This document shows, in pieces, positions 42,179 through 61,989 of a stretch of DNA of 64,000 bases. The stretch covers positions 59,817-123,816 of the forward strand of contig BTUM01000013.1 in assembly GCA_045863235.1 (NCBI GenBank). Direction: 5' to 3'. Source of the DNA: Candidatus Xenobia bacterium. GTDB lineage: Bacteria; Vulcanimicrobiota; Xenobia; Xenobiales; QWHO01. The translations under genes and the position numbers were made by a program. Under the pieces are notes generated by a model. That model was not told the origin of the DNA, searched no databases, and saw only the letters and a list, made by a program, of their open reading frames with translations. Position 1 is the first letter of the stretch; each line of letters starts with the position of its first letter.

Positions 42179-42312
42179 GCGACTGCAATTATAGCACCTT
42201 GCACACGAGGCAGGGCCGGCGTCCTGCAGGTTTGGCCTGGGAGAGCTGATTGGCGCCCGGTCTTGTAAGAGGTGGCCTCCCATGTACGTTCCCCGGGTAG
42301 ATAAGCAGGGGC

Positions 42313-44801: not shown

Positions 44802-44808
44802 GAGGAGC

Positions 44809-45834
44809 TCATTGGGAGGCGGCCCAGCTTCGGAGAAACCCCTGAGTCAGGCTCTCCAAGCGAGCCCCCAATCGATCGTAAGCCACGTCCATGGCCTTGA
44901 TCTCGTCTACTCGCGGAACGCCGGAGGGCACGGCTACACCTGGCCGCAAAGGGATCTGGGCCGCCTCGCTTTCCGCCAAGGCCTGCTCCACCACGGCGGA
45001 GTTCAGGTATTGGATGAATCGCTTCCCGCTCTCGGGATTGGGACCGCCGGCGATCAACACCGCCGCATTGGGAACGATCAGCGTGCCGGCCCCGTCCTGG
45101 TCGGGATAAACCATGGTCACGGGCTTTCCCTCTTTGATGGCCACGCTGGCGTCGTCCGTGTCGGTCAAGCCGAACGCGAACTCGCCCGCCGCGACCCGTC
45201 GCTTGACCTCCCCGTTGGAGGACAGAACCTTGACCTTGTTTCGCTTGAGCCCGTCGTAGAACTGGCGGGCGCCACTTTCGCCCATCGTCTCGAACAAGGC
45301 GGCCGCGTGCATCGAGCTCGTCCCGAACAAGGGGTTGGCCAGGCACGCCCTCCCTTTCCAGCGAGGGTCCACCAATGCCTGGAGCGAGCGGGGCAACGCC
45401 TTCTCGTCCACGAGATCGGTGTTTACGATCAGGACCCGGGCCCGGGCAGAGAGGGCCGACCAGTGGCCGGAGGGGTCGCTGTAGCGGCCCCTCGAGTCGG
45501 CCGGGTCGTCTGGCTTGAACGGGGCGGAGATACCCCGAGCTTTGAGCACCGCTGCTCGAACCGGGTCACCGCTCCAGAACACGTCGCACTGCGGCCGAGC
45601 CCTTTCGGCGATCAGCCGGTTGAGCAGGCCTGTGCTCTTGGTTTCCTCGGTGTCGGGAACCAGTTTCACCTGGATCCCTGTGTCCCGTTCAAACTGCTCG
45701 CAGACCGGGCGCGCGAACACATCGTCCACGCTGGTGTAGACGACGACGCTGCGAGAGGGGGTTGTCCCGGAGGAGCAGCCGAGCACGAACAGGAGGAGCA
45801 GGGCAATCAACCCTTTTCCAGGGCCGCCGATCAC
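44809..45834 (-). CDS. Fe(III)-type ABC substrate-binding lipoprotein
   Basis: Lipobox VLGC; VVVYTSVD, NRLIAERARPQCDVFW, NPLFGTS, GLTDTDD. Confidence 0.88.
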   Translation of the reverse strand: MIGGPGKGLIALLLLFVLGCSSGTTPSRSVVVYTSVDDVFARPVCEQFERDTGIQVKLVPDTEETKSTGLLNRLIAERARPQCDVFWSGDPVRAAVLKARGISAPFKPDDPADSRGRYSDPSGHWSALSARARVLIVNTDLVDEKALPRSLQALVDPRWKGRACLANPLFGTSSMHAAALFETMGESGARQFYDGLKRNKVKVLSSNGEVKRRVAAGEFAFGLTDTDDASVAIKEGKPVTMVYPDQDGAGTLIVPNAAVLIAGGPNPESGKRFIQYLNSAVVEQALAESEAAQIPLRPGVAVPSGVPRVDEIKAMDVAYDRLGARLESLTQGFLRSWAASQ

Positions 45835-46475
45835 TTGGAGCCGTAGCTGAAGTCGTCAAACAAAGTCACGCTGTCCGCTTTCGTCCACAACCCGACCATT
45901 CCGGGCCCTGGAAAGGTGCCGTCCTGAACGTCGAAGAGGTGCTTTCCATTCAGCCAGACCTGAAAGCGACTTCCCTCGAACTCTACCCGGAGCGTGTGCC
46001 ACTTCTGCGGGGGAACGGGAGTGTCTAGGCCATATCCCCCTTTGCGCCCCACGATGTCGAGCGACTTCCGCTTGCCTTTCTCGGTCTTATAGAGAACCAC
46101 ATTGCCCTCGAGCGCGTTGGCTCGACAGATGTAGTAGTTGTCCGCGTCTTTGGCGCGCCAGACTACCCCTCCGGCTTGGTCCTCCTCACCGGCGATTGGC
46201 TTGAATTTGACTTCTACGAAGCCATTTCTCAGCTCCGCGTCCGCCTTCAAAGCCAGCGGATAGGTGGCCTGGCCGGATTGCTTAAGCACGTTCGGCTTGC
46301 TGGGCGCGCTTTCGTCTTTCTCCACGCTCCATCGGGGCGTGCCCTGGCCGGTCATGGAGGCTATCCAGTGCGGCGGCAATTGTCCGGCCTGGACCTCATC
46401 AAAATTTACGGTTTCGGACGACAGGGCCGCGGAGACGGCCAGGCTCAACAGCAGCAAGAAAAAGATTTTTCTCAT
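45831..46475 (-). CDS. Exported ConA-like beta-sandwich (DUF1080-like) protein
   Basis: Signal peptide; DQAGGVVWR…NYYICRANALE, WHTLRV, GMVGLWTKADSVTLFDDF. Confidence 0.7.
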   Translation of the reverse strand: MRKIFFLLLLSLAVSAALSSETVNFDEVQAGQLPPHWIASMTGQGTPRWSVEKDESAPSKPNVLKQSGQATYPLALKADAELRNGFVEVKFKPIAGEEDQAGGVVWRAKDADNYYICRANALEGNVVLYKTEKGKRKSLDIVGRKGGYGLDTPVPPQKWHTLRVEFEGSRFQVWLNGKHLFDVQDGTFPGPGMVGLWTKADSVTLFDDFSYGSK

Positions 46476-46498
46476 CCAACGCCCCCAGAAGTAGATTT

Positions 46499-47377
46499 TC
46501 AATTCTTCTGCAAATCCAGCGCCTGGCGCAAGCCACGGGCCAGCTCCACCGCCGGTCCCTTACCCCAGAAGTGCACGAAGTAGTATTTCGGAGTTTCCCC
46601 TATCATGTGGTTGTGCAAAGCTACCACGTAAATTCCGTTGCGCCTGAGGCACTGAAGCACGGGTTGGACTTCCTCGGCCAGCATGGCGAAGTCGCCGTCC
46701 ACGATCGCGTGCTGCTCGTTGCCGGCGAACCCCATCCAGGTCGTGAGGCCCATGGAGCCGCCCACGCTCATCTGCCCCATTGTGGTCGTGCGGCCCACCG
46801 TGAACTTCAGAAGATCTCCGCGTGCTTCTGGCTTGACGCCGAGAATCTGCTGCATCTCCCCGGCCGGCAGGTCGCCCACGGCGGGAGGCCCTCCGGGGAA
46901 TGCAGTACCTGGCTCAGGACTGCGCTTGCGCACCGCCCGCGCGGCATCCCAGACCGCTCGAACACCTCGCGCCAGTTGCTCTGCGTTCCCGTGGCCTTCG
47001 ATGTGCATGAAGTACACGCGAGGCTGATCATAAAAGAAATGGTTGTGCAGCGCCGTCACCGAGAGGCCAGAGGCAAAGGCGGCATCCATGGCCGGGTTCA
47101 CCTCATCCTCGAAGAGCACCGTGTCGCCCATCACCATGGCGTGGTCGCTCTGGCCCTGAAAGGCCGCCCAGGTTCCCAGGCCCAGGAAGGGGTCCAGCGC
47201 CAGCCCGTCCACCCGAACGGGCACCTCCTGGCGTGGCCAGCTGACCCTCAGGACCCCGTCCGAGGTGGTGGTCACCTTGACGCCCATGATCGCCTGAATC
47301 GGCTCGGCTTGCATGGGAGCGCTCGAGACCGGTCCGGCCAGGCCGAGGAGCAGAAAGAGACAGAGCAGGACTCTCAT
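46499..47377 (-). CDS. DUF1259 (LppY/LpqO-like) exported protein
   Basis: Duplicated GD…EV…ALHNH…(F/Y)xH motif. Confidence 0.85.
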   Translation of the reverse strand: MRVLLCLFLLLGLAGPVSSAPMQAEPIQAIMGVKVTTTSDGVLRVSWPRQEVPVRVDGLALDPFLGLGTWAAFQGQSDHAMVMGDTVLFEDEVNPAMDAAFASGLSVTALHNHFFYDQPRVYFMHIEGHGNAEQLARGVRAVWDAARAVRKRSPEPGTAFPGGPPAVGDLPAGEMQQILGVKPEARGDLLKFTVGRTTTMGQMSVGGSMGLTTWMGFAGNEQHAIVDGDFAMLAEEVQPVLQCLRRNGIYVVALHNHMIGETPKYYFVHFWGKGPAVELARGLRQALDLQKN

Positions 47378-47379
47378 GC

Positions 47380-47844
47380 TTACACTCTGAGCCGGTGAAA
47401 GGTCCCGGCCTGTCCGCTGGTCACTCGCTGGCAGTAGGCATAGAGCGCGTCGTACACTACAAATTCTCGTTCCAGCACTTCGTGATCGTCCCTGAGGCCG
47501 AGGTGGCGGAAACCCTCCGCGATCGCCTCGAGCCCAGCCGACTCCGGGCGGCCGTACAGGTCGTCGGTTACGTCCGCCCCATGGACGATCTGCGCCAGCA
47601 GTTCGAGCGCCGGATCCTTCAGGGCATACTTGGCCACGATCGCCTCGAAGCTGCAACGTCCGTCGTGGTGGCCGAGCTCGGCGCCCTTCACGTCGAAAGG
47701 GATGGCCCGCTCGCGCTCGGCCACGCTCTGGACCTCCTCACGCGGAACGAAAAGAAACTCGGCCTGCTGGTCCACGAATTTGCGGATCAACCACGGACAC
47801 GCGACCCGATCCACCTTGACTTTCTCTCTGGTCACCCATTTCAT
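47380..47844 (-). CDS. Chromate-resistance ChrB C-terminal-domain protein (ChrF-like)
   Basis: MKWVTRE…VDRVACPWLIRKFVD, PFD…H…CSFE, VYDALYAY. Confidence 0.88.
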   Translation of the reverse strand: MKWVTREKVKVDRVACPWLIRKFVDQQAEFLFVPREEVQSVAERERAIPFDVKGAELGHHDGRCSFEAIVAKYALKDPALELLAQIVHGADVTDDLYGRPESAGLEAIAEGFRHLGLRDDHEVLEREFVVYDALYAYCQRVTSGQAGTFHRLRV

Positions 47845-47872
47845 ACCGGCCCCCCCCCTTTCGACAATAGGA

Positions 47873-49180
47873 TTAGAACGTCAATCGCCACAAAATTCCC
47901 AGGAGGCCACTGATCGCCAGTGTCTTCAGCATTCCAAGGTGAAAACGGAGCATGGCAACCATAGCGGCGACTGCCAGGACGAAGGCGAACGGGTCCAGGG
48001 TGCTCAGGTCGGGAACCAGGCACTGGATCGGTCCCCAATGCCAGGTCGACACGCGGCTGAAAAGAACGTGCAGCGAGAACCACACAGCCAGGTTGAAGAT
48101 GACCCCGACTACGGCGGCCGTAATGGCGGAGAGGGCCGCGCTCAAGGTGGGTCGATTCCGCAAATACTGGATGTATGGAGCTCCGGCGAAGATGAAGAGG
48201 AAACACGGGGCGTAGGTCACCCAGGTGGCCACCGTGGAGCCAAGCACGCCGGCCACCCAGGGCTCAAGCCCATTGGCGTGCCGATACGCTCCCAGGTAGC
48301 CGACGAAACCGACCACCTGGATGAGGGGGCCCGGGGTGGTCTCGGCCAGACCGAGTCCGTCCAACATCTCGCCGGGCGTCAGCCAGCCATAGGTGGCTAC
48401 TGTCTCCTGGGCCATGTAGGCCAGCACGGCGTAGGCGCCTCCAAATGTCACGACCGCCAGTTTGGAGAAGAAAAGGGCCACCTGGCTGAAGACCGATTTT
48501 GAACCCGTGGTCAGCAGGATCGCCAGGACCGGTCCCCACCAGACGAGCAGCCAGACAAGGATGGTGCGCACGGTAGAGCCGAGTGGTGGCCGTCGCATCT
48601 GAGCATCAGTAGCCACCTGGTGGCCCTTGATGACCTGGAAAGCCTGGGGCCGGAGACGGTTACCCAGAACCCCCAGGCCGCCCGCCGACACCACGATGAG
48701 CGGGTAGGGCAGGTTCAAGAAAAAAATGGCTACGAAGGCCAAGGCTGCGATGGCAACCATATAGCGGTTCTTGAGCGCTTTCTTGCCAACGCGCACGACG
48801 GCTTCGACGACAACCGCCATGACCGCCGGCTTCAACCCGTAGAACAGAGCCTGGACCAGGAATACGGTTTGAAATCCAGCGTACAGGATGCTCAGGAGCA
48901 GAATGCAGAGGTAGCCGGGAAGAACAAAGAGCCCACCCGCCATCAGGCCGCCCCGCACACCGTGCAGCAGCCAGCCGATGTAAGTGGCCAACTGCTGTGC
49001 CTCGGGACCGGGAAGCAACATGCAGTAGTTCAGGGCGTGCAGGAACTGGTCCTCGTCGACCCACTTCTTCTCCTCGACAAGAATGCGGTGCATGACGGCG
49101 ATCTGGCCGGCGGGCCCTCCGAAGCTCTGGGCAGCCACCAGGAGCCAAACCCGGAAGGCCTCGGAGAAGGACGCGATCAT
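47873..49180 (-). CDS. chrA: Chromate efflux transporter
   Basis: SFGGPAGQIAVMH, LPGPEAQQLATYIGW, TFGGAYAVL, ETTPGP. Confidence 0.95.
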   Translation of the reverse strand: MIASFSEAFRVWLLVAAQSFGGPAGQIAVMHRILVEEKKWVDEDQFLHALNYCMLLPGPEAQQLATYIGWLLHGVRGGLMAGGLFVLPGYLCILLLSILYAGFQTVFLVQALFYGLKPAVMAVVVEAVVRVGKKALKNRYMVAIAALAFVAIFFLNLPYPLIVVSAGGLGVLGNRLRPQAFQVIKGHQVATDAQMRRPPLGSTVRTILVWLLVWWGPVLAILLTTGSKSVFSQVALFFSKLAVVTFGGAYAVLAYMAQETVATYGWLTPGEMLDGLGLAETTPGPLIQVVGFVGYLGAYRHANGLEPWVAGVLGSTVATWVTYAPCFLFIFAGAPYIQYLRNRPTLSAALSAITAAVVGVIFNLAVWFSLHVLFSRVSTWHWGPIQCLVPDLSTLDPFAFVLAVAAMVAMLRFHLGMLKTLAISGLLGILWRLTF

Positions 49181-49368
49181 TGGCACGCCCAGAGATTGCC
49201 CGCCGGGATCGGCAGGACTCGGCCATGCTTGCACTGACTCTCGGGTCCCAGAACGCGGAAAAAGACCTCCGTCGCCAGGCCGACGGGGCCTCCGCCCGGA
49301 ACCCATGGAGCGAACAGCGTCACGAACAGTAAGGTTGTCATGTTCTTACCCATAACGGCAGGTAGGGA

Positions 49369-49440
49369 TTGACGGCGCAGTCCTCTCTCGCTAGACTGTA
49401 ACCATGGTTACATTGTCGCTTGCAGGATGGAAAATGTCAA
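49369..49440. promoter_or_regulatory. Face-to-face sigma70 promoters with shared palindromic operator
   Basis: + strand TTGACG(49369)-17-TAGACT(49392); - strand TTGACA(49440)-17-GACAAT(49417); TGTAACCATGGTTACA at 49397-49412. Confidence 0.75.
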
Positions 49441-49647
49441 GGAGACGAACGGAGGTCGCCGACTCGGGCGGACGTATTTCATCGTCGTTCGTATTGGCGG
49501 TGGCTCTCGGTTGGGCCCATAATCTCTCCTCTATTGGACGCCTACCCTCAATGCATGCGGTGTTCAGGTGGGTAGGCGGGTGTGTGGTCGGCATCCTTAT
49601 AGTCTACCCGCGGACACATTGAAGCCGAAGGAAACAAGCCCAGGCCC

Positions 49648-50082
49648 ATGACCAAGTGGCTGCTCATGGTGTATCGCGTTCCCCGGGATCCGAGTGCCTC
49701 GCGAGTGTACGTATGGCGCAAGCTGAAACAGCTCGGTGCTGCGGCCTTGCAGGACGCCGCCTGGGTGCTGCCGGCCACGCCCCGTACGCAAGAGCAGTTT
49801 CAATGGCTGGCTGCGGAAATCGTCGAACTGGGCGGCGAAGCCACGATCTTTGTTTCAGAGGTGTTGTTCGCCAGCGACAGGGATCGACTGACTGAAGGGT
49901 TCAACAAACCAGTGCAGGATGCATACCAGGAAATATTGACAGCATTGAAGAGCAAGGACCGAGACCTGGCTGCATTGTCTCGCAAATTCCAGCAGACTCA
50001 GGCTCAAGACTATTTCCAATTGGAACTGGGCGCAGAGGTGAGGGCAAAGTTGCTGGACGCACAAGGAATGAACGAATCATGA
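49648..50082 (+). CDS. chrB: ChrB N-terminal (DNA-binding) domain protein
   Basis: WLLMVYRVP…RVYVWRKLKQLGA…WVLP…I…GGEA…DYF. Confidence 0.82.
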   Translation: MTKWLLMVYRVPRDPSASRVYVWRKLKQLGAAALQDAAWVLPATPRTQEQFQWLAAEIVELGGEATIFVSEVLFASDRDRLTEGFNKPVQDAYQEILTALKSKDRDLAALSRKFQQTQAQDYFQLELGAEVRAKLLDAQGMNES

Positions 50083-50534
50083 AATGGGTCACCTGGGAAA
50101 GAGTCGGTGTGGACCGCATGGCGTGCGCATGGCTAATTCGCAAGCGGATCGACCCGAAAGCAATATTCCTTTTCGTGCCCGTCGGCCAAACGAAGGACCT
50201 GCCGAAAGGAGCCGAGCCGTTTGATATTCCAGGCGTCCGGCTCTCGCACCATCGTGGGCACTGCTCGTTTCACACGATGCTCAATGAATTCCAAATCGTC
50301 GACCCGATTCTCGAGCGGATCGCCAGGATCATTGACGAGGCGGATACCGTGCAAGAGGTGTGCGTGGAGCCGGCGGCGGCAGGCCTGGATTTGATCTGCG
50401 AGGGCCTGCGGCTCATTAGCCCCGACGATGATACGGCGCTCGACCACGGTGTCTTGATCTACGACGCCCTCTACGCGCGTTTGGCGGTTGAGCAAGCGGC
50501 AGGGAGTCAAGCGAATGATGGGTCACTCGGTTGA
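50079..50534 (+). CDS. ChrB C-terminal domain protein
   Basis: MKWVTWE…VDRMACAWLIRKRID, PFD…SH…CSF, IYDALYA; ATGA overlap with the upstream gene. Confidence 0.85.
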   Translation: MKWVTWERVGVDRMACAWLIRKRIDPKAIFLFVPVGQTKDLPKGAEPFDIPGVRLSHHRGHCSFHTMLNEFQIVDPILERIARIIDEADTVQEVCVEPAAAGLDLICEGLRLISPDDDTALDHGVLIYDALYARLAVEQAAGSQANDGSLG

Positions 50535-50636
50535 GACCTAAAGTAGATCGCCTCATATGTTCCCTGTCCCTTTCTTCTTGGCGGGCACGCTGAAAGTCGT
50601 CTATGCTCTGCTCGGGGCGTTCGTGGCCCGAGTGAC

Positions 50637-51680
50637 TCAATCATGGGAATGGCGGTGGTGGATATCCGGGTAGTGTGGGTGCGAATGCACCAGCCGCCGG
50701 TGGCGGTGGAAGTGGGTGTGAGGCTCGCCGCTCGGGGTATCAGAGCCGTGCTCGTGCTGATGATGCTCGTCATGCACATGCTCATGCGTGTGCTCGAGGT
50801 CCTCGTGAACGTGCTCATGCTCGTGGTGCTCGGTCAGGTGGAGGTAGACTCCAACGGCCATCAGCGCGGCGGCCACGAGAAAGCGCCAGTGGATCGGGTC
50901 TCGAAAGAGCACCAGCGACAGGGCGGCACCGGCGAACGGGGCGAGCGAGAAATACGCCCCGGTCCGGGCCGAGCCCAGATGGCGCAGGGCCAGCACGAAG
51001 AGCACCAGGCTGACCCCGTAACCGAAGAAGCCTACCAGGCCGGCGCCAGCGACCTCGAGTGCTCCAGGCCACCTCACCTGATGAAGTAGAGCCGCGATTG
51101 CCAGGTTGCAAGCGCCCGCCGCCCCGCCCTTCAGGGCAGCGATTCGAAGCGGATCTCCGCCCGAGACTTTTTGAGTAAGGTTATTGTCGACAGCCCAGCA
51201 GAAGCAAGCAGCCACGACCAGCAGGGCGCCCGGTGCGAGTTTCAACGAGCCCTCCCAGGACAGAAGCAGACCCCCGCTGACAATGGCCACCATCCCAAGA
51301 GCGATGCGGCGGTCGAAATTCTCCCGCATCACGAACCAGGCCAGCAGTGCCGTGAACACGCCCTCGAGGTTCAAGAGCAGCGAGCTCGTCGAGGCCGGCG
51401 TCGAGAGCAGGCCGTGCATCAGCAGAACCGGGCCCAGGACGCCACCGGCCAGAATCGCCGCTGCCAGCCAGAGCCATTCCCGCCCGTGAAGGCTTCCCTT
51501 CGGTGGGCGAACCAGGGTTGCCAGGCCGAGACCCAGCCCGGAGCCCAGGTAGAGGAGACCAGCCAGCATTTGAGGCGGCAGCTGGCCCAGCAGGAGCTTG
51601 GCCAGAGGAGTGCTGGCGCCAAAGAGCAGGGCTGCCAGAATTGCCGCGACGATTCCGTTCAAGGCGGCGGAAACCGCCAT
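50637..51680 (-). CDS. EamA/DMT transporter with His-rich C-terminal tail
   Basis: LFGASTP, AGLLYLGSG, SLLLNLE, WAVDNNLT; tail HHEHEHVHE…HPHYPDIHHRHSHD. Confidence 0.9.
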   Translation of the reverse strand: MAVSAALNGIVAAILAALLFGASTPLAKLLLGQLPPQMLAGLLYLGSGLGLGLATLVRPPKGSLHGREWLWLAAAILAGGVLGPVLLMHGLLSTPASTSSLLLNLEGVFTALLAWFVMRENFDRRIALGMVAIVSGGLLLSWEGSLKLAPGALLVVAACFCWAVDNNLTQKVSGGDPLRIAALKGGAAGACNLAIAALLHQVRWPGALEVAGAGLVGFFGYGVSLVLFVLALRHLGSARTGAYFSLAPFAGAALSLVLFRDPIHWRFLVAAALMAVGVYLHLTEHHEHEHVHEDLEHTHEHVHDEHHQHEHGSDTPSGEPHTHFHRHRRLVHSHPHYPDIHHRHSHD

Positions 51681-52332
51681 CCTTTAGCGCCGGCGAGCGC
51701 TTCGAACAGAATCACGGCCCGGTTCTCCTTGCTCACAGCCAATACGACCAGGGGCTTCTCAGCCTTATCCCTGAGCATGAACCGGATGGTTCCGTCCTCC
51801 ATGCAGTTCCATTCGCCGCGCGGAAGACCAGCGCTGTCTGCCAGATACATGCCGCCGCCATCCGGCGACATTCCGACCGCGACACGCACTGTCTGCTTTT
51901 CGTCCCGGACATACAGGCCGGGCGTCTCCTTGACGATGCGAAACTCGGAGCGCAGGCTCTGGCGGGCGTCAAACAAGGAGAGCCCACCGCCTTGCTCCTC
52001 GGCCCCCATGGCGAGACGCACCCTGCCTTCAGGGTCGAGCATGTGAAGGGATAGGATACCGCGTCCTTACCGAGCGCCAGGCGAACTCTCTCCCGACCGT
52101 CTTCGGTCCGCATCGAGAGATGGGGTTCCGGGGCACTGGCATCGAGCCGGATCCGCTCCTTGCCCGAGTGATCGCAAAGTGCGAGCACTGTAGGCCTGGT
52201 CGTGCCGCGAAGGTGGGCTACAACCACCACAATCAAAACCAGGTTGACCGCGGACAGGGCCACGCAAACAACTCCCAACCAACGCAGGCGCTGCTCTACT
52301 CGAGTGATTCGGCGTTGGGTCCGGTCATCCAT
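51659..52332 (-). pseudogene. Membrane-anchored beta-repeat protein, frameshifted by a 5-bp duplication
   Basis: ORFs 52332 and 52042 share D.xG+.R+.L repeats; removing one GGATA of GGATAGGATA (52049-52058) gives a single 669-bp frame. Confidence 0.75.
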
Positions 52333-55300
52333 CGGTAGCTACCTCGTCGTCTTTCCGGTGGGCGCTGTAGTAAAGAGCAGGTAAGACCAGCAACGTGAGA
52401 GCGGTCGAAGACAGGATGCCCCCGATCACCACGGTGGCCAGCGGCCTCTGGACCTCCGCCCCCACTCCGTGAGACAGGGCCATCGGGATGAACCCGACCG
52501 AGGCTACCAGAGCGGTCATCAGGACCGGCCGCAGGCGCGTGAGCGAGCCGGTCTCAACAGCCTCGCGAAGGGGCATCCCCTCCGAGCGGAGCTTCTTGAT
52601 GAAGGACACCATCACGAGACCATTGAGCACGGCCACCCCTGACAGTGCGATGAATCCAACCGCAGCAGAGATTGAGAGAGGAATGCCTCGCACCCACAGA
52701 CCCACGACGCCGCCTGTCAGGGCCAGAGGGACGCCCGTAAAGACCAGCATGGCGTCACGCGCGCTCTCGAGTGTCGTGAAGAGCAGCACGAAAATCAACA
52801 CCAGCGAGATCAAAACCACGACCTGAAGCCGCTTGGCAGCCGAGATGAGGTGCTCGAACTGACCGCCCCACTCCAACCAGTAGCCGGGCGGGATCTCCAC
52901 GTCTTCCCGGATGCGCGACTGGGCCTCGACGACGAAACTGCCCAGATCGCGACCCCTGACGTTGGCTGTGATGGTGGCGTGGCGCTTTCCGTTCTCCCGG
53001 TTCACCTGGTTGGGGCCTGGTGCCAGCTCGAAACGAGTGACGGCACCCAGCGGCACGTAGTTCGCCCCCTCCCTGGTTGTCGGTAGCGGGACCGGAATCC
53101 GCTCGAGCGCCTGAGTGTCCCCTCGCAAGTTATCCGGTAAGCGGACGATGATCGGGAAGCGCCGGTCGCCCTCCACCAACTCGCCGGCCGTGCTGCCGCC
53201 AATGGCCGTCTGGATGACCTCTTGCACGTCTTCCGCCGAGAGTCCGTAGCGCGCCATAGCCTCCCAGTCCAGCTCGATGGTCAGGAAGGGCAGGCCGGTG
53301 GCTTGCTCGGCCCGGACGTCTGAAGCACCCGGGATGGTCTTGAGGACGGCCTCGATCTTCTTGCCCACCTCCTCCAGCGTGGCCATGTCGTCCCCAAACA
53401 CTTTGACTCCGACGTCGCTGCGGACGCCGGCAATCAACTCGTTGAAGCGCATCTCGATGGGCTGGATGAACTCGTACTTGTTGCCCGGGATCTGGTTGAG
53501 CCGGGCCTCCATCTTGGCCACCAGGCCGGCTTTGGGAAGCGAAGGGTCGGGCCACTCCGAGCGCGGCTTGAGCATCACATAGACGTCTGCCACGCTGGGA
53601 GGCATGGGGTCCGTGGCGATCTCGGCCGTTCCGATCTTGGCGAAGACGTGGCTGACCTCCGGGAACCTGGCGATCTCCGTTTCGAGCATCGACTGCATCG
53701 AAACGGCCTGGTCGAGCCCCGTCCCGGGAATTCGCAGGGCGTGGATCAAGAGCTCGCCCTCGTCAAGACTGGGTAGGAACTCGCTTCCCATGCGACTGGC
53801 CAGCAGCAGGGTCCCCGCAAACAGGCCGCAAGCGGCCAGAATCACGAGCAGGCGGGCCCGCAAGGCAAAGGTGAGGATCGGTCGGTACAAACGGCGGGCC
53901 CACCGCATCAGCGGGTTCTCCGACTCCGACATCCTCCCACTCATCAAAAAGAGCAGGGCGGCCGGCACGAACGTGATCGCAAACAGCATCGAGCCGAGCA
54001 GCGCCGCGATCACGGTGAAGGCCATGGGGTGGAACATCTTGCCTTCGATCCCGGTGAGGCTCAAGATCGGCAGGTAGATCACCATGATGATGAAGACGCC
54101 GAACACGCTGGGCTGCAGCACCTCGAGCGAAGCCTCGCGGATGGTCTCGAATCGATCGGAGAAGCCGAGCACCCGACCCAGGCGATGCTGGGCCTCGCTC
54201 AGCCTTCGCAGGCAGTTCTCCACGATGATGATGGCACCGTCCACGATGATGCCGAAGTCGATGGCGCCCAGGCTGAGGAGGTTGCCGCTTACGCCGTAGG
54301 TGACCATCCCGGTGACCGCAAAGGCCATCGAGAGCGGGATGATGAGCGCTGTTACGAGAGCTGCCCGGAAGTTTCCGAGTAACAGGAAAAGGATGGCGAC
54401 CACCAGGATCGCACCCTCGAGCAGGTTCTGCTGCACCGTGTGAAGTGTGGCATTGACCAGCCGGGTGCGGTCGTAAACCGTGACCGCCTGAACGCCCTCG
54501 GGAAGAGTCCGGTTGATCTCCTCCATCTTTTTACTGACACGCTGCGACACCGTGCGGCTGTTCTCACCGATCAGCATGAACACGGTGCCCAGAATGGCTT
54601 CCTTGCCGTCCCGGGTCGCGGCCCCGGTGCGCAGCTCCTTGCCGAGGGCGACGCTGGCCACGTCCTTGACATAGATCGGAATTCCCTGGCGCGTCGCCAC
54701 CACGATATTCGCGATCTGCTCCAGGCTCACGATCCGGCCGGTCGATCGGATGAGATACTGCTGGCCGTTGCGTTCGATGTAGCCGGCCCCGACGTTGGCA
54801 TTGTTTCGACTCAGGGCGGCGACCAGGTCTTGAAAGGTCAGCCCGTAGGCGACCAACTTCTCCGGCAGCGGGTTCACGTGGTACTCTCGCGAATAGCCGC
54901 CGATGCTGTTGACATCGGTGACTCCGGGGATGTTCTTCAGTTGTGGACGAATAATCCAGTCCTGGATTGTGCGCAGGTCGGAGAGGGAATACTTCTCCTC
55001 GGATTCCTTGTCGGTCTGCACGGTCCAGAGGAAGATCTCTCCCAGGCCGGTCGCGATGGGGCCCATGGTGGGCTCGAGCCCGGGAGGCAGGCTCTCCTTG
55101 ATCGCCTGCAGGCGCTCGGTGATGAGCTGGCGCACGAAGTAGATGTTCGTTCCGTCCTCGAAGACCACGGTGACCTGTGAGAGCCCGTAGCGCGAGATGG
55201 AGCGCGTGTAACTCAGGCGGGGCAAACCGGCCAGGCTGGTCTCGACCAGGAACGTGACACGCTGCTCGACCTCCAGCGGCGAAAAACCGGGCGCCTCCGT

Positions 55301-55450
55301 GTTGATCTGGACCTGGACGTTGGTGATGTCCGGGACCGCGTCGATCGGGAGTCGGCGGAAGTTGTAGACGCCCAGCAAGAGCGTAGCGAGAGCCAACAGG
55401 ACCACCAGCGTCCGCTGCCTCAGCGAGTAGAGCAGAATCGATCTCAGCAT
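52325..55450 (-). CDS. czcA: Heavy-metal RND efflux permease
   Basis: DAVPDITNVQVQ, GAIDFGIIVDGA, GVAVLNG, RLRPVLMTA. Confidence 0.95.
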   Translation of the reverse strand: MLRSILLYSLRQRTLVVLLALATLLLGVYNFRRLPIDAVPDITNVQVQINTEAPGFSPLEVEQRVTFLVETSLAGLPRLSYTRSISRYGLSQVTVVFEDGTNIYFVRQLITERLQAIKESLPPGLEPTMGPIATGLGEIFLWTVQTDKESEEKYSLSDLRTIQDWIIRPQLKNIPGVTDVNSIGGYSREYHVNPLPEKLVAYGLTFQDLVAALSRNNANVGAGYIERNGQQYLIRSTGRIVSLEQIANIVVATRQGIPIYVKDVASVALGKELRTGAATRDGKEAILGTVFMLIGENSRTVSQRVSKKMEEINRTLPEGVQAVTVYDRTRLVNATLHTVQQNLLEGAILVVAILFLLLGNFRAALVTALIIPLSMAFAVTGMVTYGVSGNLLSLGAIDFGIIVDGAIIIVENCLRRLSEAQHRLGRVLGFSDRFETIREASLEVLQPSVFGVFIIMVIYLPILSLTGIEGKMFHPMAFTVIAALLGSMLFAITFVPAALLFLMSGRMSESENPLMRWARRLYRPILTFALRARLLVILAACGLFAGTLLLASRMGSEFLPSLDEGELLIHALRIPGTGLDQAVSMQSMLETEIARFPEVSHVFAKIGTAEIATDPMPPSVADVYVMLKPRSEWPDPSLPKAGLVAKMEARLNQIPGNKYEFIQPIEMRFNELIAGVRSDVGVKVFGDDMATLEEVGKKIEAVLKTIPGASDVRAEQATGLPFLTIELDWEAMARYGLSAEDVQEVIQTAIGGSTAGELVEGDRRFPIIVRLPDNLRGDTQALERIPVPLPTTREGANYVPLGAVTRFELAPGPNQVNRENGKRHATITANVRGRDLGSFVVEAQSRIREDVEIPPGYWLEWGGQFEHLISAAKRLQVVVLISLVLIFVLLFTTLESARDAMLVFTGVPLALTGGVVGLWVRGIPLSISAAVGFIALSGVAVLNGLVMVSFIKKLRSEGMPLREAVETGSLTRLRPVLMTALVASVGFIPMALSHGVGAEVQRPLATVVIGGILSSTALTLLVLPALYYSAHRKDDEVATDG

Positions 55451-55459
55451 GGGAGCCTC

Positions 55460-57178
55460 TCAGTGGTCATGGGTGGCCCCCGACTTCTCCAGGTCAGCCT
55501 TGAGGATGTAGCTCCCCTCGGTGACGTACGTCGCTCCGGGCCAGAGGCCCGTAATCTCGACCCACTCCTCGCTGCGGCGGCCAATCTCGACGGGACGAAC
55601 CTCATACTCGTCACCCGACTTAATGAACACGACGTCCCAATCGCGGAAGGTCTGCAGCGCCGAGGGCCGGACGGCCAGGCCGAGCTCCTCGCGCAGGTTG
55701 CCCTCCAGGAAGACGCGCACGAACTGGCCCGGTCGCAGCTTGCCGGCCCGGTTCGGCAGCAACAGCCGGCCCTGTGCCGAGCGGGTCTCGGCGCCGACCA
55801 GCGGACCGATGTAGCTTAAGGTCGTCTGCAGCGGGGAAGCCAGGCCGGCACCCTCGACGCGGGCCCTCTGGCCGACCCGCACCTGGGCCAGGTCCTTCTC
55901 GGGAATGGAGACGCTGACCCAGATCGTGGAGAGGTCAGCCACCTGGAAGAGCGGCTCTCCTGAAGCCTCCACAAATTCGCCCTGCACGACGTCGCGCTCG
56001 ATGACCGTCCCGGCCACGGGAGAGCGCAGCACGACGCTGTCCGCGCCGCTGCCGGCCACGCCCAGGACGTCCATCTTGCGTCGTGCAAAGTCGGCTCGGT
56101 GCTGTTCCTCGTCGACCTTGCGCTCGAGCTCCGGAAGCGTTTCGATGCGATGACGCAGAGCCTCTTCGAATCGTCCGGTGTAATCCGCTCGAGCCGTCTC
56201 CAGCGCGTAGCGCGCAGCCTCGACCTCTTTGCGGCTCACGAGCTTGCTCTGGTAGAGGGTCTCCTGCCGCTTGAGCGTATCCCGAGCATTCCTGACGGCG
56301 CTGTAAGCTTCCAGGAGCTCGGCCTTCTCCATTCCCACACGCATCTTGAGCAGGTCACGATGGATGGAGTCGAAGTCGCCTCCTCGGGCCAGGCGCTTGG
56401 CGACCTGCTCCAGGTTATTCGTCAGGTCTTGCTCGCGGCGCAAGACGGTCTGGGCCAGAGCGAGCTCGTGCTGCGCCTCTTGGAGAGTGTGCCACAGATC
56501 GGTCAACTCTGAGCTGCTGACCTCGGCTAAAGGCTCGCCTTCCTGAACCAGCGAGCCCTGACGCACATAGATGCGAGTCACCGTGCCGGCCAGGGGAGAA
56601 ACGACGTGGCCGGTGGCCTCCGCGTTGAGAGCCAGCGTTCCTGGCAACTCCAAGGTTCCCGTTACCTCGACTGATCTCGCCTTCTCGATTGTGATCCCGG
56701 CGCGCTCAGCTGCCTCCTGGGACATCTGGACTCGCCCCTCGCGCTGGGAGTAGCTCCAGACATGGTCGTGGCCGCCCTCCTTAACCAGCACGCGCGCGTC
56801 GAACGAGTGCGGCTCGACGATCTCGAGATCTCCACGGAGGTAGTCCTCCTCAGGCTTGAAATGAACGGTTTCTTTCGGCTGGCCGAGCCGCTCGAGCTCG
56901 ACTGTGGCCTCGACTCCGACGGGCGGGAGCGGCTTTCCGTCTCGATAGAGGTAGAGACGGAATTCAGGCGGCACCCCGCTTTCATAGATGGTTACCTCAG
57001 TCTCGAAGCCGCCTTCCTTGAACAGTTTGCCGCCGTGCGGCCCCTTCGGAATGGCCCCCGGAGTCGGAGACTCGGGCGCCGGGTGATCCGTCGATGGTTC
57101 TCCCGTGGACGGTGGGCTCGAGCAACCCGTGAGCCACAGGCAGGCGCTTAAGCAGATCAGGGTCAGGAATCGTTTCAT
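55460..57178 (-). CDS. czcB: RND periplasmic adaptor with N-terminal extra domain
   Basis: Lipobox LTGC; GPHGG…E.GVPPEFRLY domain; lipoyl motifs; C-terminal THDH. Confidence 0.88.
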   Translation of the reverse strand: MKRFLTLICLSACLWLTGCSSPPSTGEPSTDHPAPESPTPGAIPKGPHGGKLFKEGGFETEVTIYESGVPPEFRLYLYRDGKPLPPVGVEATVELERLGQPKETVHFKPEEDYLRGDLEIVEPHSFDARVLVKEGGHDHVWSYSQREGRVQMSQEAAERAGITIEKARSVEVTGTLELPGTLALNAEATGHVVSPLAGTVTRIYVRQGSLVQEGEPLAEVSSSELTDLWHTLQEAQHELALAQTVLRREQDLTNNLEQVAKRLARGGDFDSIHRDLLKMRVGMEKAELLEAYSAVRNARDTLKRQETLYQSKLVSRKEVEAARYALETARADYTGRFEEALRHRIETLPELERKVDEEQHRADFARRKMDVLGVAGSGADSVVLRSPVAGTVIERDVVQGEFVEASGEPLFQVADLSTIWVSVSIPEKDLAQVRVGQRARVEGAGLASPLQTTLSYIGPLVGAETRSAQGRLLLPNRAGKLRPGQFVRVFLEGNLREELGLAVRPSALQTFRDWDVVFIKSGDEYEVRPVEIGRRSEEWVEITGLWPGATYVTEGSYILKADLEKSGATHDH

Positions 57179-58479
57179 GGGGCCTCCTGCTGCGTCGGGG
57201 GCGTCCCGGACAGTGGCCCCCCGACGGCGGTTTCAAGTTCGATCTGGGCGGCTCGAGCCGCGTAGTCGGCCTGCAGCACCTGCTCGGCCATGCGCTGGTA
57301 GGCCTCTCGGGCGGCGATCACTTCGAACTGGGTGCGCATCCCCAGCTCATAGGCTTGCTGGACGATGCGGAGGAATTCCCGGGCTCGCTCCAGGCCCGTC
57401 TGGCGCAGCTCACGCGCCGCCTCGTCCGCGGCCAGCAGGGTATCCCAGGCGCGGGCCACGTCCCGGTCGATGGTTTGCAGCAAGGCGGCCTCATCGAGCC
57501 GGGCCGCCTCGGCCAGTGCTCGGGCCTGCTCAATGTTGCCCTCGTTGGTATCGAAGATGGTGAGCGGGATCTCCAGTTGCACGTTGGCCGCCACTCCGGA
57601 GTCATCGAGCGAGACGATCGATGGCTGGAAAGAGCTTGACGGAATGTAGAGCCTCTCATGACCGACCCCCACCTTGAGGTTGAGATCGCCCGAGGCTCGG
57701 GCTTCCTCCAGCCCGATCTGCATCTCTTGAACTCGGGTTCGGGCGAGTGCCTGCAGTCGGTCCGGACGCTCGGCCCGAGCCCGGGCCTGGAGGGCTTCAA
57801 GAGATAGCTGCGAGAGCTCGGGCGCTGGACCGAGCTCGGCAGGAAAGGGGGCTTGATCGGGACCGACCCAGACCTCGAGTGACCGCCAGGCGGCCCGCTC
57901 TCGGCCCAGGGCCTGGGAATGGAGCGCCTTGCGCCGGGCCACTTCGGCCTCGAGCTCCAGCAGGTCGACCTCGGCTACGTCGCCGGCTTGTAGCCGCTTT
58001 CGCGTCGCATCAAGCTGCATCTGGGCAACCTGCAGAAGCTCGTCCTGCAAGCTGGCGAGCCCCTGGGCCAGGGCCAGGTCGGCCAGAGCCTGGTGGACAT
58101 CCCGGCGGAGGCGGTTTTGCTGGTCAATCAGGCCGAGCTCGGCCAGGGCCAGCTGAGCCTCAGCCAGGTGAATACGGGCCTGCCGCTTGCCGCCCAGCTC
58201 GATAGGCTGCGAGTAGTAGAGGCCGATATCGCTGACAACACTCAGGTCATGCGAGCCCTGGATACCAAGGCTGGGATTGGGCGACATCCCGGCCTGGAGC
58301 AAAGCCCCGCGTGCCGCCTGGGCTCGAGCCTGGGCGGCCTGGAGAGCGGGACTGCGCTCCTCTGCCAGGCGGTAAACCTGGTCCAAACTTGGGGAGGAGG
58401 TATCAGCCGGCTGAGCTCCGGCTGCGGCGTAGAGCAACCAAACGCATAGAAGCGCCGTCACTCTCTGAGTGAGCGACAT
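57175..58479 (-). CDS. czcC: TolC-family outer membrane factor
   Basis: PNPSL, SQPIELGGKRQAR, IPLTIFDTNEGNI. Confidence 0.88.
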   Translation of the reverse strand: MSLTQRVTALLCVWLLYAAAGAQPADTSSPSLDQVYRLAEERSPALQAAQARAQAARGALLQAGMSPNPSLGIQGSHDLSVVSDIGLYYSQPIELGGKRQARIHLAEAQLALAELGLIDQQNRLRRDVHQALADLALAQGLASLQDELLQVAQMQLDATRKRLQAGDVAEVDLLELEAEVARRKALHSQALGRERAAWRSLEVWVGPDQAPFPAELGPAPELSQLSLEALQARARAERPDRLQALARTRVQEMQIGLEEARASGDLNLKVGVGHERLYIPSSSFQPSIVSLDDSGVAANVQLEIPLTIFDTNEGNIEQARALAEAARLDEAALLQTIDRDVARAWDTLLAADEAARELRQTGLERAREFLRIVQQAYELGMRTQFEVIAAREAYQRMAEQVLQADYAARAAQIELETAVGGPLSGTPPTQQEAP

Positions 58480-58590
58480 GAACGGGTACCCCTTTCGCGC
58501 TGGAAGCAGCGCAGCAGGCCTGATCGCTGAGGAATCAGCGGAGAAACGCGAGTCAGCCCGACCCGATCGGGTGGGCTAATGGAAGACCTG

Positions 58591-58929
58591 CTAGGCTACG
58601 GGAGGGCCGCGGCGCGAAGGACCGCGAGGCAGGGAGGGGTGTAACGGCGTGCCTTCGTCTCGGGGTGGGAGGACGGGCTCCAGGCGAGGGTCGTGTGCGG
58701 TGCAAGCCAGCAGCGGCACCAACGCCGGCGGAACTGTGTCCGTTACTGGGAGGGGTAAGTTGGTCTGGGTCCGGAGCGCCATTGAGTACACCGGCTTCTC
58801 CGGGCCATGATCGTGGTGCGCGGACTCGAACAGGTCATGGCCCCAGGTGGCCAGCCACATGCCGACTACCAGGAGAATCACGAGAGTGGAGCCGGAACCT
58901 CGCTTCCGCACGGGTCGTCCTTTGACCAA
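58591..58929 (-). CDS. Small exported His-containing leader protein ending RGPP (CzcI/DUF2946-like)
   Basis: TM/signal, HDLFESAHHDH, Pro-rich C-terminus …PRGPSRRGPPVA; first gene before czcCBA. Confidence 0.6.
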   Translation of the reverse strand: MVKGRPVRKRGSGSTLVILLVVGMWLATWGHDLFESAHHDHGPEKPVYSMALRTQTNLPLPVTDTVPPALVPLLACTAHDPRLEPVLPPRDEGTPLHPSLPRGPSRRGPPVA

Positions 58930-58973: not shown

Positions 58974-59172
58974 AGGTAGGGGTTAGCTTTGCCGTTGGCG
59001 CCTGTGGAAAGCTTGAACAACTTCGTGTGTAAGAGGGGGAAGTTGTTCAACCTTACCACAGGTCCGGGAGCCTCGTCATGGCGGGAGTTACATAGATAAT
59101 GAAAACAGGCCGGCTAAACAGAGGTCACTGCTTGGGGCAAGTCACGTCAAGACCAAGTATAAATATATGGAA
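58974..59172 (-). repeat. ~200-bp structured element, copy A (inverted relative to copy B)
   Basis: Reverse complement aligns with 60308-60508; 62-bp hairpin at 59001-59062. Confidence 0.85.
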
Positions 59173-59224
59173 CGGAATGGATTATTGCGAATAGGAGCGG
59201 CCGTGATGAGTTGGTGCGGCTGGC

Positions 59225-59554
59225 TTAAGATGTTCTTTTGGCGAGCAGCGGGAGGGCACATTCGAGGTGAAAGTGGCTTGCATCCTCGCCTCTGATCTGG
59301 ACTTCGACCTGGTCGGACCCGGGGTCGATTTTCTTGCAGCAGTGCGAGCAGGTCCTGTCGCTACCGAGCTTGGCCTCTCGATCGACAATCACCAGGCCAC
59401 GCATATAGGCTGCACCCCCATTCTCCTTAACCCAGGCCACGAGCTCCGGCGTAAGTCGAACCGCCACTTGCGGAGCTCCGTCGGAATAGCCCGCCGGATA
59501 CTGTCTGGGCCGGCCCCGTCCACGCTTGGCTGGTTCTTTCTCTGAGCCTTTCAC
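59225..59554 (-). CDS. Small putative DNA-binding regulator (AT-hook-like, RHH-like, Zn-ribbon)
   Basis: KRGRGRPRQY, VAVRLTPEL…, CSHC…HLEC; TGGACA-17-TATACT 6 nt before GTG. Confidence 0.6.
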   Translation of the reverse strand: MKGSEKEPAKRGRGRPRQYPAGYSDGAPQVAVRLTPELVAWVKENGGAAYMRGLVIVDREAKLGSDRTCSHCCKKIDPGSDQVEVQIRGEDASHFHLECALPLLAKRTS

Positions 59555-59560
59555 GGAGCC

Positions 59561-59621
59561 AGTATAGGGCTGAAAAAAATTCTTGTCCAGGGATTGACAT
59601 TTACCGGTAACCGACTATAAT
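59561..59621. promoter_or_regulatory. Back-to-back promoters of the island switch
   Basis: + strand TTGACA(59594)-16-TATAAT(59616) with TTACCGGTAA palindrome in the spacer; - strand TGGACA(59589)-17-TATACT(59566). Confidence 0.8.
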
Positions 59622-59700
59622 GTGAGATAGCCGGATTAAATTAAGAGCGCCCACGGCCAAGCAACTCCGGCTTCCCCAATCTCCCCTAAGGAGTACCCCT

Positions 59701-59985
59701 ATGCCCTCGACCCGTGAAACCGTACCGCAAAAAGCCGCCCGTCTCAAGAAGAATTACCGCGTCATCCAAGTCAACGAGCGCGCCTTCGTCGTGATTGGCG
59801 ACCACTCAACTTACGAAGTGCGCCGTTTGAACGACGCCTGGCATTGCGGCTGCCGCTGGACCCGCTTCAACGGCACTTTCAAGCCCTGCTCGCATATTCA
59901 AGCCGCCCAGCAGGCCCTGCTTGACCCGTCGTGCCAGGAGCCCGTCAAACCACTCGCCCAGCTTCTGGCTGGGATCATGAACTAA
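59701..59985 (+). CDS. SWIM zinc-finger protein
   Basis: YEV…CGC…PCSHI; AAGGAG RBS. Confidence 0.8.
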   Translation: MPSTRETVPQKAARLKKNYRVIQVNERAFVVIGDHSTYEVRRLNDAWHCGCRWTRFNGTFKPCSHIQAAQQALLDPSCQEPVKPLAQLLAGIMN

Positions 59986-60001
59986 CTGGAGGTAAACAAC
60001 G

Positions 60002-60202
60002 ATGCCCGAAACCATCACCCGCAAGACCCTGACCGTGACCGAGGCCGCCACCTGCCTGGGCGTCTCGAGACACTTCGCATACCAGGCCGTTCGCGAGGGC
60101 GCGATCCCGTCCATCCGGATCGGCCGCCGCATCCTCATCCCGGCCCAGGCGTTCGAGCAGCTCCTGGCCAACGTCGGCCAGGTCGCCATTTCCACCAACT
60201 AG
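60002..60202 (+). CDS. Excisionase-family HTH protein
   Basis: LTVTEAATCLGVS…IPSIRIGRRILIP; GGAGGT RBS. Confidence 0.88.
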   Translation: MPETITRKTLTVTEAATCLGVSRHFAYQAVREGAIPSIRIGRRILIPAQAFEQLLANVGQVAISTN

Positions 60203-60307
60203 GCAGCAGCTCGCCCTCGACCAAGTCGAACGACCTCGGCCTGGTCGAGGCCCACGCAACCGACCCGACCTTCTTTCCCCGGCCATTCTCGGCCCATCTC
60301 TCCAAAC

Positions 60308-60508
60308 TTCATATTATTTTAATTTGGGCCTGACGAGGCCCTCGCCTGGCAGTGACCTCATTTAGCAGGCGCCTCCGCCTCCTCGGCCTTCCTACCTCCG
60401 CCATGACGATGCTCCCGTGCCTGTGGTGAAGTTGAACAAGTTCCCGCTCTTGCATGCGAACTTGTTCAAGTTCTCCACAGGCCGCTAGCGGCAAGCTTTC
60501 CCCTACCT
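60308..60508 (+). repeat. ~200-bp structured element, copy B, directly upstream of the integrase
   Basis: 62-bp hairpin at 60420-60481, 52/62 identical to copy A. Confidence 0.85.
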
Positions 60509-60532: not shown

Positions 60533-61750
60533 ATGCAGGGTTCTATTACCAAGCGCGACAAGAGAGGCGAAACCTGGCTCATCAGAGTCAGCCTTGGAAG
60601 AGATGCCAACGGAAAGCGGATTTACAGGTCCGAGACTTTCCATGGCAAGAAAGCCGGCGCCCACGACAGGCTTCGGGACCTGATCGATGAGTTCAAGACC
60701 CACGGTGCCGACTGCCCCGAGGCGAGCCGGGAGTTGCTCCACGAATACCTGATCTGGTGGGCCGAACGCACCCGAGACGAAGTGCGCCCGCGAACGGCCG
60801 CCAACCGGGTGAAGTGCATCAACACTTACTTCCCGAGCGACCCGGCCGTGATGAAGAAATTCCGGCTGACTGACCTGGGCAGGCTGCCGCTCGGCAAGAT
60901 TACGCCGACGGCGATCGACGAGCACCTCGCTTCCTTGCGCCGGCCCAAGGCCGATGGCACGCCCCGCCTGGGACACAGCTCCATGAAGAAGCTCTTCAGC
61001 ATCCTCCGCCAAGCCCTCCGCTACGCGGTGCGCAAGAAGAAGATCGCCGTCAATCCGGCCTCCAGCGACCTCATCGACGTGCCCAGAGCTCCGAAGGCGA
61101 CCAAGGCCCTGGCCCTTACTGTCGAGCAGGCCCAGACGTTCCTGCAGTTCGCCGCGCTGGACAGGTTCAGGGCGCTCTGGTTCGTGGCTCTCTTCACCGG
61201 CTGCCGCCCCGGCGAGCTCCTCGGGCTCGAGTGGAAGCACATCGACCTTCAGAAAGCGGAGGTCAGGGTTGAGCAGTCACTCTACCGCCCGAAGGGCGGG
61301 GGTTGGACCATCACGGCTCCGAAGACCCCGAAGTCCAGGCGCACGATTCCGATCCCGGTCGAGGTGGTGGAAGAGCTCCAGCGGCACAAGCTGGCCCAGG
61401 ACATCCAACGCCTTGCCTGGCGAATAGAGCACGACCGGGACTTCGTTTTCACCGCCTACAACGGCAGCCCGCTCGTGAGCAACCACGTCACGGTCAGCAA
61501 CCTCCACCCGCTGGCCAAAAAGGCCGGCCTGCCGGTGGGGCTCAATTTGTATTCCCTACGTCATTCGCATGCGACCCTGATGCTGCACGCCGGGAATGAT
61601 GCTCGCCTGGTTGCGGACCGCCTTGGGCATGCCGACGTCCGCCAGGTTCTCGAGACCTACTACCATCCGCCCAAAGAGGCCCAGCGCGATGCCACCGCGA
61701 AGATGGGAGCCACGCTTTTGGGTAGCCAGAAACCCAGTCCGGAGGGGTAG
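60533..61750 (+). CDS. Tyrosine site-specific integrase (phage/ICE type, with arm-binding N-domain)
   Basis: GSITKR N-terminus; TGCRPGE, PKT, YSLRHS, LGH, TYYH catalytic set. Confidence 0.95.
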   Translation: MQGSITKRDKRGETWLIRVSLGRDANGKRIYRSETFHGKKAGAHDRLRDLIDEFKTHGADCPEASRELLHEYLIWWAERTRDEVRPRTAANRVKCINTYFPSDPAVMKKFRLTDLGRLPLGKITPTAIDEHLASLRRPKADGTPRLGHSSMKKLFSILRQALRYAVRKKKIAVNPASSDLIDVPRAPKATKALALTVEQAQTFLQFAALDRFRALWFVALFTGCRPGELLGLEWKHIDLQKAEVRVEQSLYRPKGGGWTITAPKTPKSRRTIPIPVEVVEELQRHKLAQDIQRLAWRIEHDRDFVFTAYNGSPLVSNHVTVSNLHPLAKKAGLPVGLNLYSLRHSHATLMLHAGNDARLVADRLGHADVRQVLETYYHPPKEAQRDATAKMGATLLGSQKPSPEG

Positions 61751-61784
61751 GCGAGAATGGCTCAACCATGCGGATTCGGAAACG

Positions 61785-61803
61785 GTGATCAAGCGGTGAT
61801 CAT
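61785..61803 (+). repeat. Arm-type direct repeats GTGATC, right end
   Basis: Copies at 61785 and 61796. Confidence 0.65.
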
Positions 61804-61989
61804 TTCAGCCCCCAGCCGCCCCGCAACCCCAGTCGGGGCGCCATTCTGAAGCCCCCGTGTAGGTTTCCCGGGTAAGAGCGACGCGCCTTCGTGCAGGTTT
61901 GTTCGGGGAGCCTGTAAGCCGACTTTAGACCATCGGGCCCAGATCAGCACGGTAGACTGCCCCCCGGGAAGGAGTGATATAATCATTCC

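Follow-up and report, generated by a model that had tools for sequence, protein, structure and literature searches.

Divergently paired hairpins with DnaA-box-like arms on a bacterial integrative island: candidate A-site-like single-strand initiation signals

Two inverted copies of an element of about 200 bp lie within a predicted integrative island in the window, the 64,000-nt stretch of Candidatus Xenobia DNA that was analysed. We propose, at about even odds (a probability near 0.5), that these copies are A-site-like single-strand initiation signals, i.e. DnaA-box hairpins, one per strand of the 19.6-kb island. An earlier note on this DNA had offered three options for the pair: a cis-regulatory RNA coupling integrase and efflux expression, an origin-like or oriT hairpin, and recombination sites that flip a promoter cassette. 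The origin-like option comes closest, as a hairpin that would use host DnaA in cis and not as an oriT.

Copy A occupies 58974..59172 on the minus strand and points towards the cargo genes; copy B occupies 60308..60508 on the plus strand and points towards the integrase (covariance model scores 107 and 111.6 bits, respectively; both were delimited by blastn and alignment). The inverted duplication reported in the earlier note is borne out: the reverse complement of copy A is identical to copy B in 150 of 205 alignment columns, the alignment scores 224 against 46 ± 9 (maximum 74) in 300 shuffles, and blastn pairs the two at 83% across 112 nt (E 2e-24). Each copy contains a 62-nt hairpin. Hairpin A (59001..59062, minus) has a 24-bp stem with T.T and G.G mismatches and a 14-nt loop, and hairpin B (60420..60481, plus) was placed by folding and by comparison of its 62 nt with hairpin A. 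The two differ at exactly ten positions (9, 11, 21, 27, 33, 36, 37, 42, 52 and 54), as had been claimed; six of these make up the compensatory pairs 9/54, 11/52 and 21/42, the other four fall in the loop, and the T.T (8/55) and G.G (12/51) mismatches are present in both hairpins. The folding z-scores of the window hairpins are -2.77 and -5.56.

The 3' arm of each stem carries an outer DnaA-box-like 9-mer, CTTTCCACA in hairpin A (59003..59011, minus; 10.6 bits with a host weight matrix) and TTCTCCACA in hairpin B (60471..60479, plus; 11.1 bits), next to an inner unit, TTGTTCAAG in both (59012-59020, minus, and 60462-60470, plus), which is a poor match at -6.5 bits. On the 5' side of each hairpin is a block of near-invariant columns that is unpaired in the consensus fold (59065..59084, minus, in copy A; 60398..60417, plus, in copy B) and is likely a protein-binding site. 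The 5' part of each copy is a promoter-like module with a weak -10. In copy A (59122..59172, minus) it consists of an AT tract, TTGACG (59145-59150), 17 nt and TGACCT (59122-59127), and a promoter scan of the window made no call there; in copy B (60308..60358, plus) it consists of an AT tract, CTGACG (60330-60335), 17 nt and TGACCT (60353-60358).

Between the copies lie four features. A small putative regulator gene (59225..59554, minus) encodes 109 aa with an RGRGRPR motif; its product matched no protein family, and its homologues adjoin the SWIM gene in most loci. A divergent pair of sigma-70-type promoters called by the promoter scan (59561..59621) reads TTGACA-16-TATAAT on the plus strand and TGGACA-17-TATACT on the minus. 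Next come the gene for a small SWIM zinc-finger protein (59701..59985, plus; 94 aa), which is the marker gene of the island family, and the gene for an excisionase-like HTH_17 protein (60002..60202, plus; Pfam PF12728, excisionase in PHROGs). The model of the SWIM protein has a pLDDT of 91.6, and its predicted fold found no match in the PDB at E 0.001. Copy B abuts a tyrosine integrase gene (60533..61750, plus; 405 aa, Pfam PF00589). The cargo (42718..58929, minus; assigned by Pfam) comprises an ABC transporter, ChrA/ChrB, EamA, a CzcCBA-like RND efflux operon and a 112-aa leader ORF. A homologue of the leader ORF precedes a second efflux operon in the host genome (G000:C5:49154-49474), where there is no hairpin element.

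The predicted left att site (42279..42460, plus) has a 21-nt core at 42279-42299 and GTGATC repeats; the predicted right site (61755..61874, plus) has GGTGATCA repeats at 61784 and 61795 and a 21-nt core at 61854-61874. The cores agree at 18 of 21 positions, both are flanked by GTGATC-type repeats, and from their starts at 42279 and 61854 the predicted length of the island is about 19.6 kb. None of the core or arm repeats was found within copies A and B, which are therefore not the att sites of the island. Among 50 proteins scanned from related loci, together with the island genes of the window, there was no relaxase, Rep, primase or phage gene.

How is the element distributed? The 8.36-Mb host genome has four copies, the window pair and a back-to-back pair on contig C11, and both pairs adjoin the same SWIM module, which does not fit a MITE or scattered repeat with many copies irrespective of context. 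All four of the genus's other genomes have the element, and a further 20 loci were collected from metagenomes via the SWIM protein. The resulting family (genus plus metagenomes) has 41 copies, 33 of them at <96% identity, of which 30 were aligned and three truncated ones left out; the copies are mutually related, so that counts over them overstate independence. The element accompanies a regulator-SWIM-excisionase-integrase module. The element-bearing records L089-L092 are titled Candidatus Eremiobacteraeota; L068 and L069 are labelled differently.

Three layouts occur: copy B before the integrase, as in the window; copy B after the integrase; and both copies back to back after the integrase, where divergent pairs have no intervening gene. 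Thirteen non-redundant loci, spread over the three layouts, have two full copies, and in every one of them the copies are divergent; the same orientation recurs in G023 (C72 and C99) and L343. There are exceptions to the pairing: L026 is without copy A, L021 and L036 have lost the hairpin of copy A, and no copy B lies within the available flank in L033 and G029. In the other layouts the island boundary falls at the 3' part of tRNA-Thr(CGT). A position ahead of a gene, as had been described for each copy, holds in the window and not family-wide. Coupling of integrase and czc expression is likewise not the general role, since a copy can follow the integrase or sit back to back with its partner and the cargo of other islands is mostly anti-phage defence genes.

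The consensus fold of 30 homologues is the long stem only; a small GCC...GGC stem, earlier described as shared by the window copies, is absent from it. The suggestion that selection acts on structure is supported, 17 of 25 pairs having changed on both sides. In an alignment that was not fitted to the covariance model, and in which some rows are one column out of register, both-side changes fill 83 cells, compared with 26.5 ± 3.7 in shuffled and 8-26 in slid controls. When changes were placed on a tree from which the stem had been left out, both partners of a pair changed on the same branch in 54 cases (11-25 with slid partners); this count used the alignment fitted to the model. A small hairpin over the -10 does not covary (3/7 pairs; 88 of 500 shuffles were as high). 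The sense strand folds better in 30/30 copies as DNA and in 28/30 as RNA, and folding energy therefore cannot tell DNA from RNA. The earlier note did not recognise the element as a named motif, and Rfam had no match for the window that reached the gathering score; matches to the element copies were at chance level. Hammerhead-like and attC-like readings were dropped on inspection.

The 3' arm resembles the DnaA boxes of the host itself. In six genomes the region upstream of dnaA has clustered boxes of the forms TTTTCCACA, TTGTCCACA and TTATCCACA, with an abutting pair that includes AAATCCACA, and a host DnaA matrix was made from 36 such boxes chosen by closeness to the consensus. By this matrix the best sense-strand 9-mer lies in the 3' arm of the stem in 29/30 copies; the outer 3' box scores higher than its 5' partner read as the reverse complement in 30/30, and the inner unit does so in 25/30. 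Boxes of at least 7 bits occur in 6 of 798 long stems of the genome, and four of the six are element copies. The two box-like units are spaced 8 or 9 nt apart, which is the length of a box. Many boxes are weak in the sister family. It is of note that the likely oriC box cluster of the host lies at the end of contig C1 (G000:C1:396640-397105) and dnaA at its start (C1:1-1800); the two ends of this contig probably join.

Do the two strands carry equivalent hairpins? In 37 sense rows (48 matches minus eight antisense self-hits, two truncated copies and one duplicate), T4 of both units is T in 37/37. Its partner is G, T or A and makes a Watson-Crick pair in only 6/37 and 5/37 rows; at the remaining stem pairs, leaving aside the G.G column, Watson-Crick pairing is seen in 28-37 of the 37 rows. 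On the tree the partner of T4 changed five and seven times in the two units, and T4 never. The base is thus invariant and its partner usually mismatched, and the hairpin is therefore strand-specific.

The SWIM profile matched 20 of 151 genomes of the phylum. An independent set was drawn of 20 loci from other families, picked by the SWIM protein regardless of hairpins and searched with a strand-neutral stem finder. It gave 20 stems near the module, with a box of at least 7 bits in 11/20 and one perfect TTATCCACA hairpin pair (L334); 10/20 loci had no such stem, several of them being clipped by contig ends. In sister-family relatives the hairpin is often doubled, and the promoter-like module is missing. 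Our prediction of orientation failed outside the genus: the strand picked by tandem box score pointed outward in eight cases and inward in 12, and the rule that the 3' arm has the better box is therefore not general. Only mismatch geometry retains polarity there. Folding energy favours the outward strand in 22/29 hairpins as DNA and in 21/29 as RNA, and on that strand G.T outnumbers T.G by 34 to 4. The seven energy exceptions are three near-symmetric stems, two hairpins behind the integrase of a neighbouring island (L338) and two in L340, an inward double hairpin that runs against the expected polarity. In three related islands (3/3 tested) dprA lies between xis and the hairpin. Downstream of dprA, L334:4900-5050 has a branched structure with four DnaA-box-like sites, including the perfect pair. 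L339:1754-2084 has a palindrome with an integrase 3' fragment on either side, the two fragments pointing towards each other.

A stem pattern found matches in 16/401 genomes of the phylum and in none with the reversed control. In a distant family the hairpin occurs in IS21-family elements, antisense to istB and about 150 nt from the element end, at 11/11 loci in 10 genomes; no SWIM similarity was found at these loci.

The A-site of the ABC primosome, on which the work is reportedly that of Masai (1990 and 1995) and of Carr and Kaguni (2002), is known mainly as a laboratory template for DnaA studies. In E. coli, a DnaA-box hairpin on single-stranded DNA is where DnaA loads DnaB, and priming follows (PMC6127211). 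Our element would share with it a single-strand hairpin with a DnaA box in the stem and the use of host proteins only (PMC6127211): one strand can form the hairpin, and the box lies within the stem, but with the T4 mismatch and, in the window, the poor inner unit. Unlike the A-site as described there, it is a natural, conserved family with a 24-bp stem, two box-like units and a fixed mismatch opposite T4, it is paired on opposite strands, and its host has a DciA-like gene. One hairpin signal per strand is also the arrangement of ssiA and ssiB in the IncQ plasmid RSF1010 (PMC8567376), two similar hairpins, one on each strand, as at all our two-copy loci. Those signals are 40 nt and need the plasmid proteins RepA, RepB' and RepC, whereas our copies measure about 200 nt, are separated by as much as about 2.5 kb and have DnaA-like boxes; no element-encoded helicase, primase or initiator was found among the proteins scanned. 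The phiX174 ssi and the pT181 sso use host enzymes only (PMC5714925), and conversion of single-stranded to double-stranded DNA by the host alone at a dedicated site is what our element would have in common with them; they differ in having one site per replicon together with a rolling-circle Rep, and no Rep was found here.

On the single-strand initiation proposal, one strand of the island would fold as a DNA hairpin and host DnaA would bind its T4-bearing arm. Bound DnaA would recruit the replicative helicase and primase, with priming as at the E. coli A-site, and the missing strand would then be synthesised, restoring a double-stranded island. Because of the mismatch opposite T4, just one of the two strands would form a hairpin with an intact box, which would account for there being one copy on each strand. 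Where might single strands come from? Candidate sources are DNA uptake, in which either strand can enter, and transcription-driven opening from the promoter-like module. The competence gene comEC is present in 5/5 hosts and also in 10/14 control genomes, so that uptake is no more than a possible source. Several results weigh against the A-site-like reading: no replication gene was found among the proteins scanned, the inner units of the window are weak (-6.5 bits), the box-score orientation test failed outside the genus, the energies as RNA also favour the sense strand, copies lie sense in transcripts in most layouts, the E. coli A-site reaction needs DnaC and this host has a DciA-like gene, and some islands are without one copy or its hairpin (L021, L026, L033, L036 and G029).

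A broader reading, which we consider less likely than not, takes these hairpins as natural, polarised A-sites on mobile elements without replication genes. The fixed mismatch would leave one loadable strand; islands would have one hairpin per strand to serve whichever strand is present after uptake, and IS21 would have one for copy-out, so that unrelated elements would share a second-strand route through host DnaA. A natural A-site family on defence and metal-resistance islands and IS21 would, if true, give the A-site reaction a biological role, explain how integrase-only elements regain double-stranded form, and provide a searchable signature. A search of mainly open-access literature brought up no description of DnaA-box hairpins occurring naturally on islands or insertion sequences.

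Could the hairpin work as RNA instead? RNA hairpins that are processed are known, lambda sib being one. Each copy would then be a promoter with an RNA hairpin behind it, and termination, attenuation or processing at the hairpin would tune integrase and cargo expression; the boxes may be bound by DnaA in duplex DNA and act in regulation. We regard this as the main alternative, though as rather unlikely. The AT tract, YTGACG and, 16-17 nt later, a hexamer with A2 and T6 are found in 22/30 copies, the sense strand is favoured as RNA, most layouts place each copy sense in a transcript, usually at the 3' end of the regulator or xis/int transcript, and L021 and L036 retain the promoter-like part after losing the hairpin. 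However, A2 of the -10 is missing in both window copies, no U-tract terminator was called, the promoter-like module is absent from G023 and from the IS21 hairpins, there is no gene upstream of the back-to-back copies in L001, L039 and L041, and in IS21 the copy runs antisense to istB. Nor would an RNA role explain the box match and the one-sided constraint on T4. If this reading is right, the element is still an undescribed structured motif. In a split double-stranded origin, DnaA would sit on the tandem boxes in duplex, the AT tract would open, and the hairpin would aid as a cruciform. Tandem boxes followed by GGCC do recall the basal unwinding system of oriC, in which tandem DnaA boxes are followed by a short GC-rich stretch (PMC8287927); in L022, where the 5' arm has decayed, two good boxes remain, and G023 retains the AT tract. 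This reading is nevertheless improbable: basal unwinding has at least three DnaA-trios within 16 nt, and three consecutive trios follow the box here in only 4/36 rows and are absent in 32/36; the AT tract is about 90 nt away, on the other side; and the boxes are inside a covarying hairpin whose non-box positions covary strongly.

It is quite improbable that the island integrase, or a relaxase acting in trans, uses the copies as sites of recombination, inversion or transfer (oriT). The copies are inverted, copies A and B of one island group together on the tree in L017 and L031, A/B pairs share 30-52 identical nt in 6/9 pairs, and an integrase remnant precedes copy A in L020; the grouping and the shared tracts make occasional exchange between A and B over evolutionary time likely. 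Against such a role, the island is delimited by att cores and arm repeats that are separate from the copies, the element is associated with IS21 and with four types of integrase whose mutual identity is 32-41%, and its invariant features are in the stem and not at a nick site in the loop. Integron attC sites and folded attP are likewise strand-specific imperfect hairpins near a tyrosine recombinase; here there are no extrahelical bases and no cassette array, and conventional att sites are present. Inversion of the promoter cassette, one of the options of the earlier note, is unsupported: the inner cassette has one orientation in all nine islands of the window's layout, the longest run of identical nucleotides between the window copies is 12, and the att cores lie at 42279 and 61854. 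Two DNA sequencing runs yielded shallow contig pieces with no inversion joint and are too shallow to bear on inversion. Finally, the hairpins could be bound by some other protein of the host or the island, such as the SWIM protein, or could serve to titrate DnaA and not to prime. In integrase islands the SWIM gene accompanies the element, and the conserved unpaired block is a candidate site for a further protein partner; the lack of SWIM similarity at the IS21 loci makes the SWIM protein unlikely as a general reader, and we regard this last alternative as very improbable.

Searches further afield gave little. A full-length profile applied after a GTDB-wide pattern (35 stretches) had no matches beyond the loci of the genus itself and L076, a contig of 2.8 kb that is titled Solirubrobacterales and may be mis-binned. 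The copy at L076:1-240 is diverged, extends over the full length, shares the G.T at T4 and precedes a transposase-like ORF. The covariance model found nothing in five genomes of other phyla. In another phylum a loose pattern matched 5/61 genomes, against two with the control; of these matches L170, which lies beside a transposase, is the only one that folds well. Among plasmids copy B was unmatched, and two relatives gave only short chance pieces. In viral contigs no SWIM relative was found and two specific patterns were unmatched; a looser one gave 120 loci, mostly chance, with a few tandem-box hairpins near terminase genes whose membership in the element family is not established. The phage contigs L204, L208 and L219 have regions rich in DnaA-box-like sites and tandem-box hairpins, and in L204 and L219 a terminase gene is close to the box-rich region. 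Lone diverged copies of the element, without the SWIM module, lie beside HNH endonuclease sequence in G004 (L129:6722-6833 and L130:4977-5088).

Some repeats around the islands are also of interest. The att sequence of the window (61755-61874) has about 15 relatives in the genome, often as direct pairs a few kb apart, on contigs C18, C9, C21, C53, C5, C20, C60 and C14 of G000, which often have no integrase match; these are likely small elements mobilised in trans by the island's integrase. One sequence, G000:C9:58560-58675, resembles a joined right-arm, core and left-arm junction. A tandem 106-nt repeat runs from 63640 to 64000 of the window, to the contig end (starts at 63657, 63763, 63869 and 63975), and has diverged relatives on C111, C6, C43, C59, C79 and C23. 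On contig C11 a group II intron with a reverse transcriptase (L001:480-2430) lies between the back-to-back pair and the tRNA-Thr att piece. A 37-nt sequence beside the tRNA-Thr 3' piece (L001:1-90) recurs at many contig ends (G000 C2, C6, C20, C72, C85, C112, C147 and C165), which suggests a repeated element that was left unassembled.
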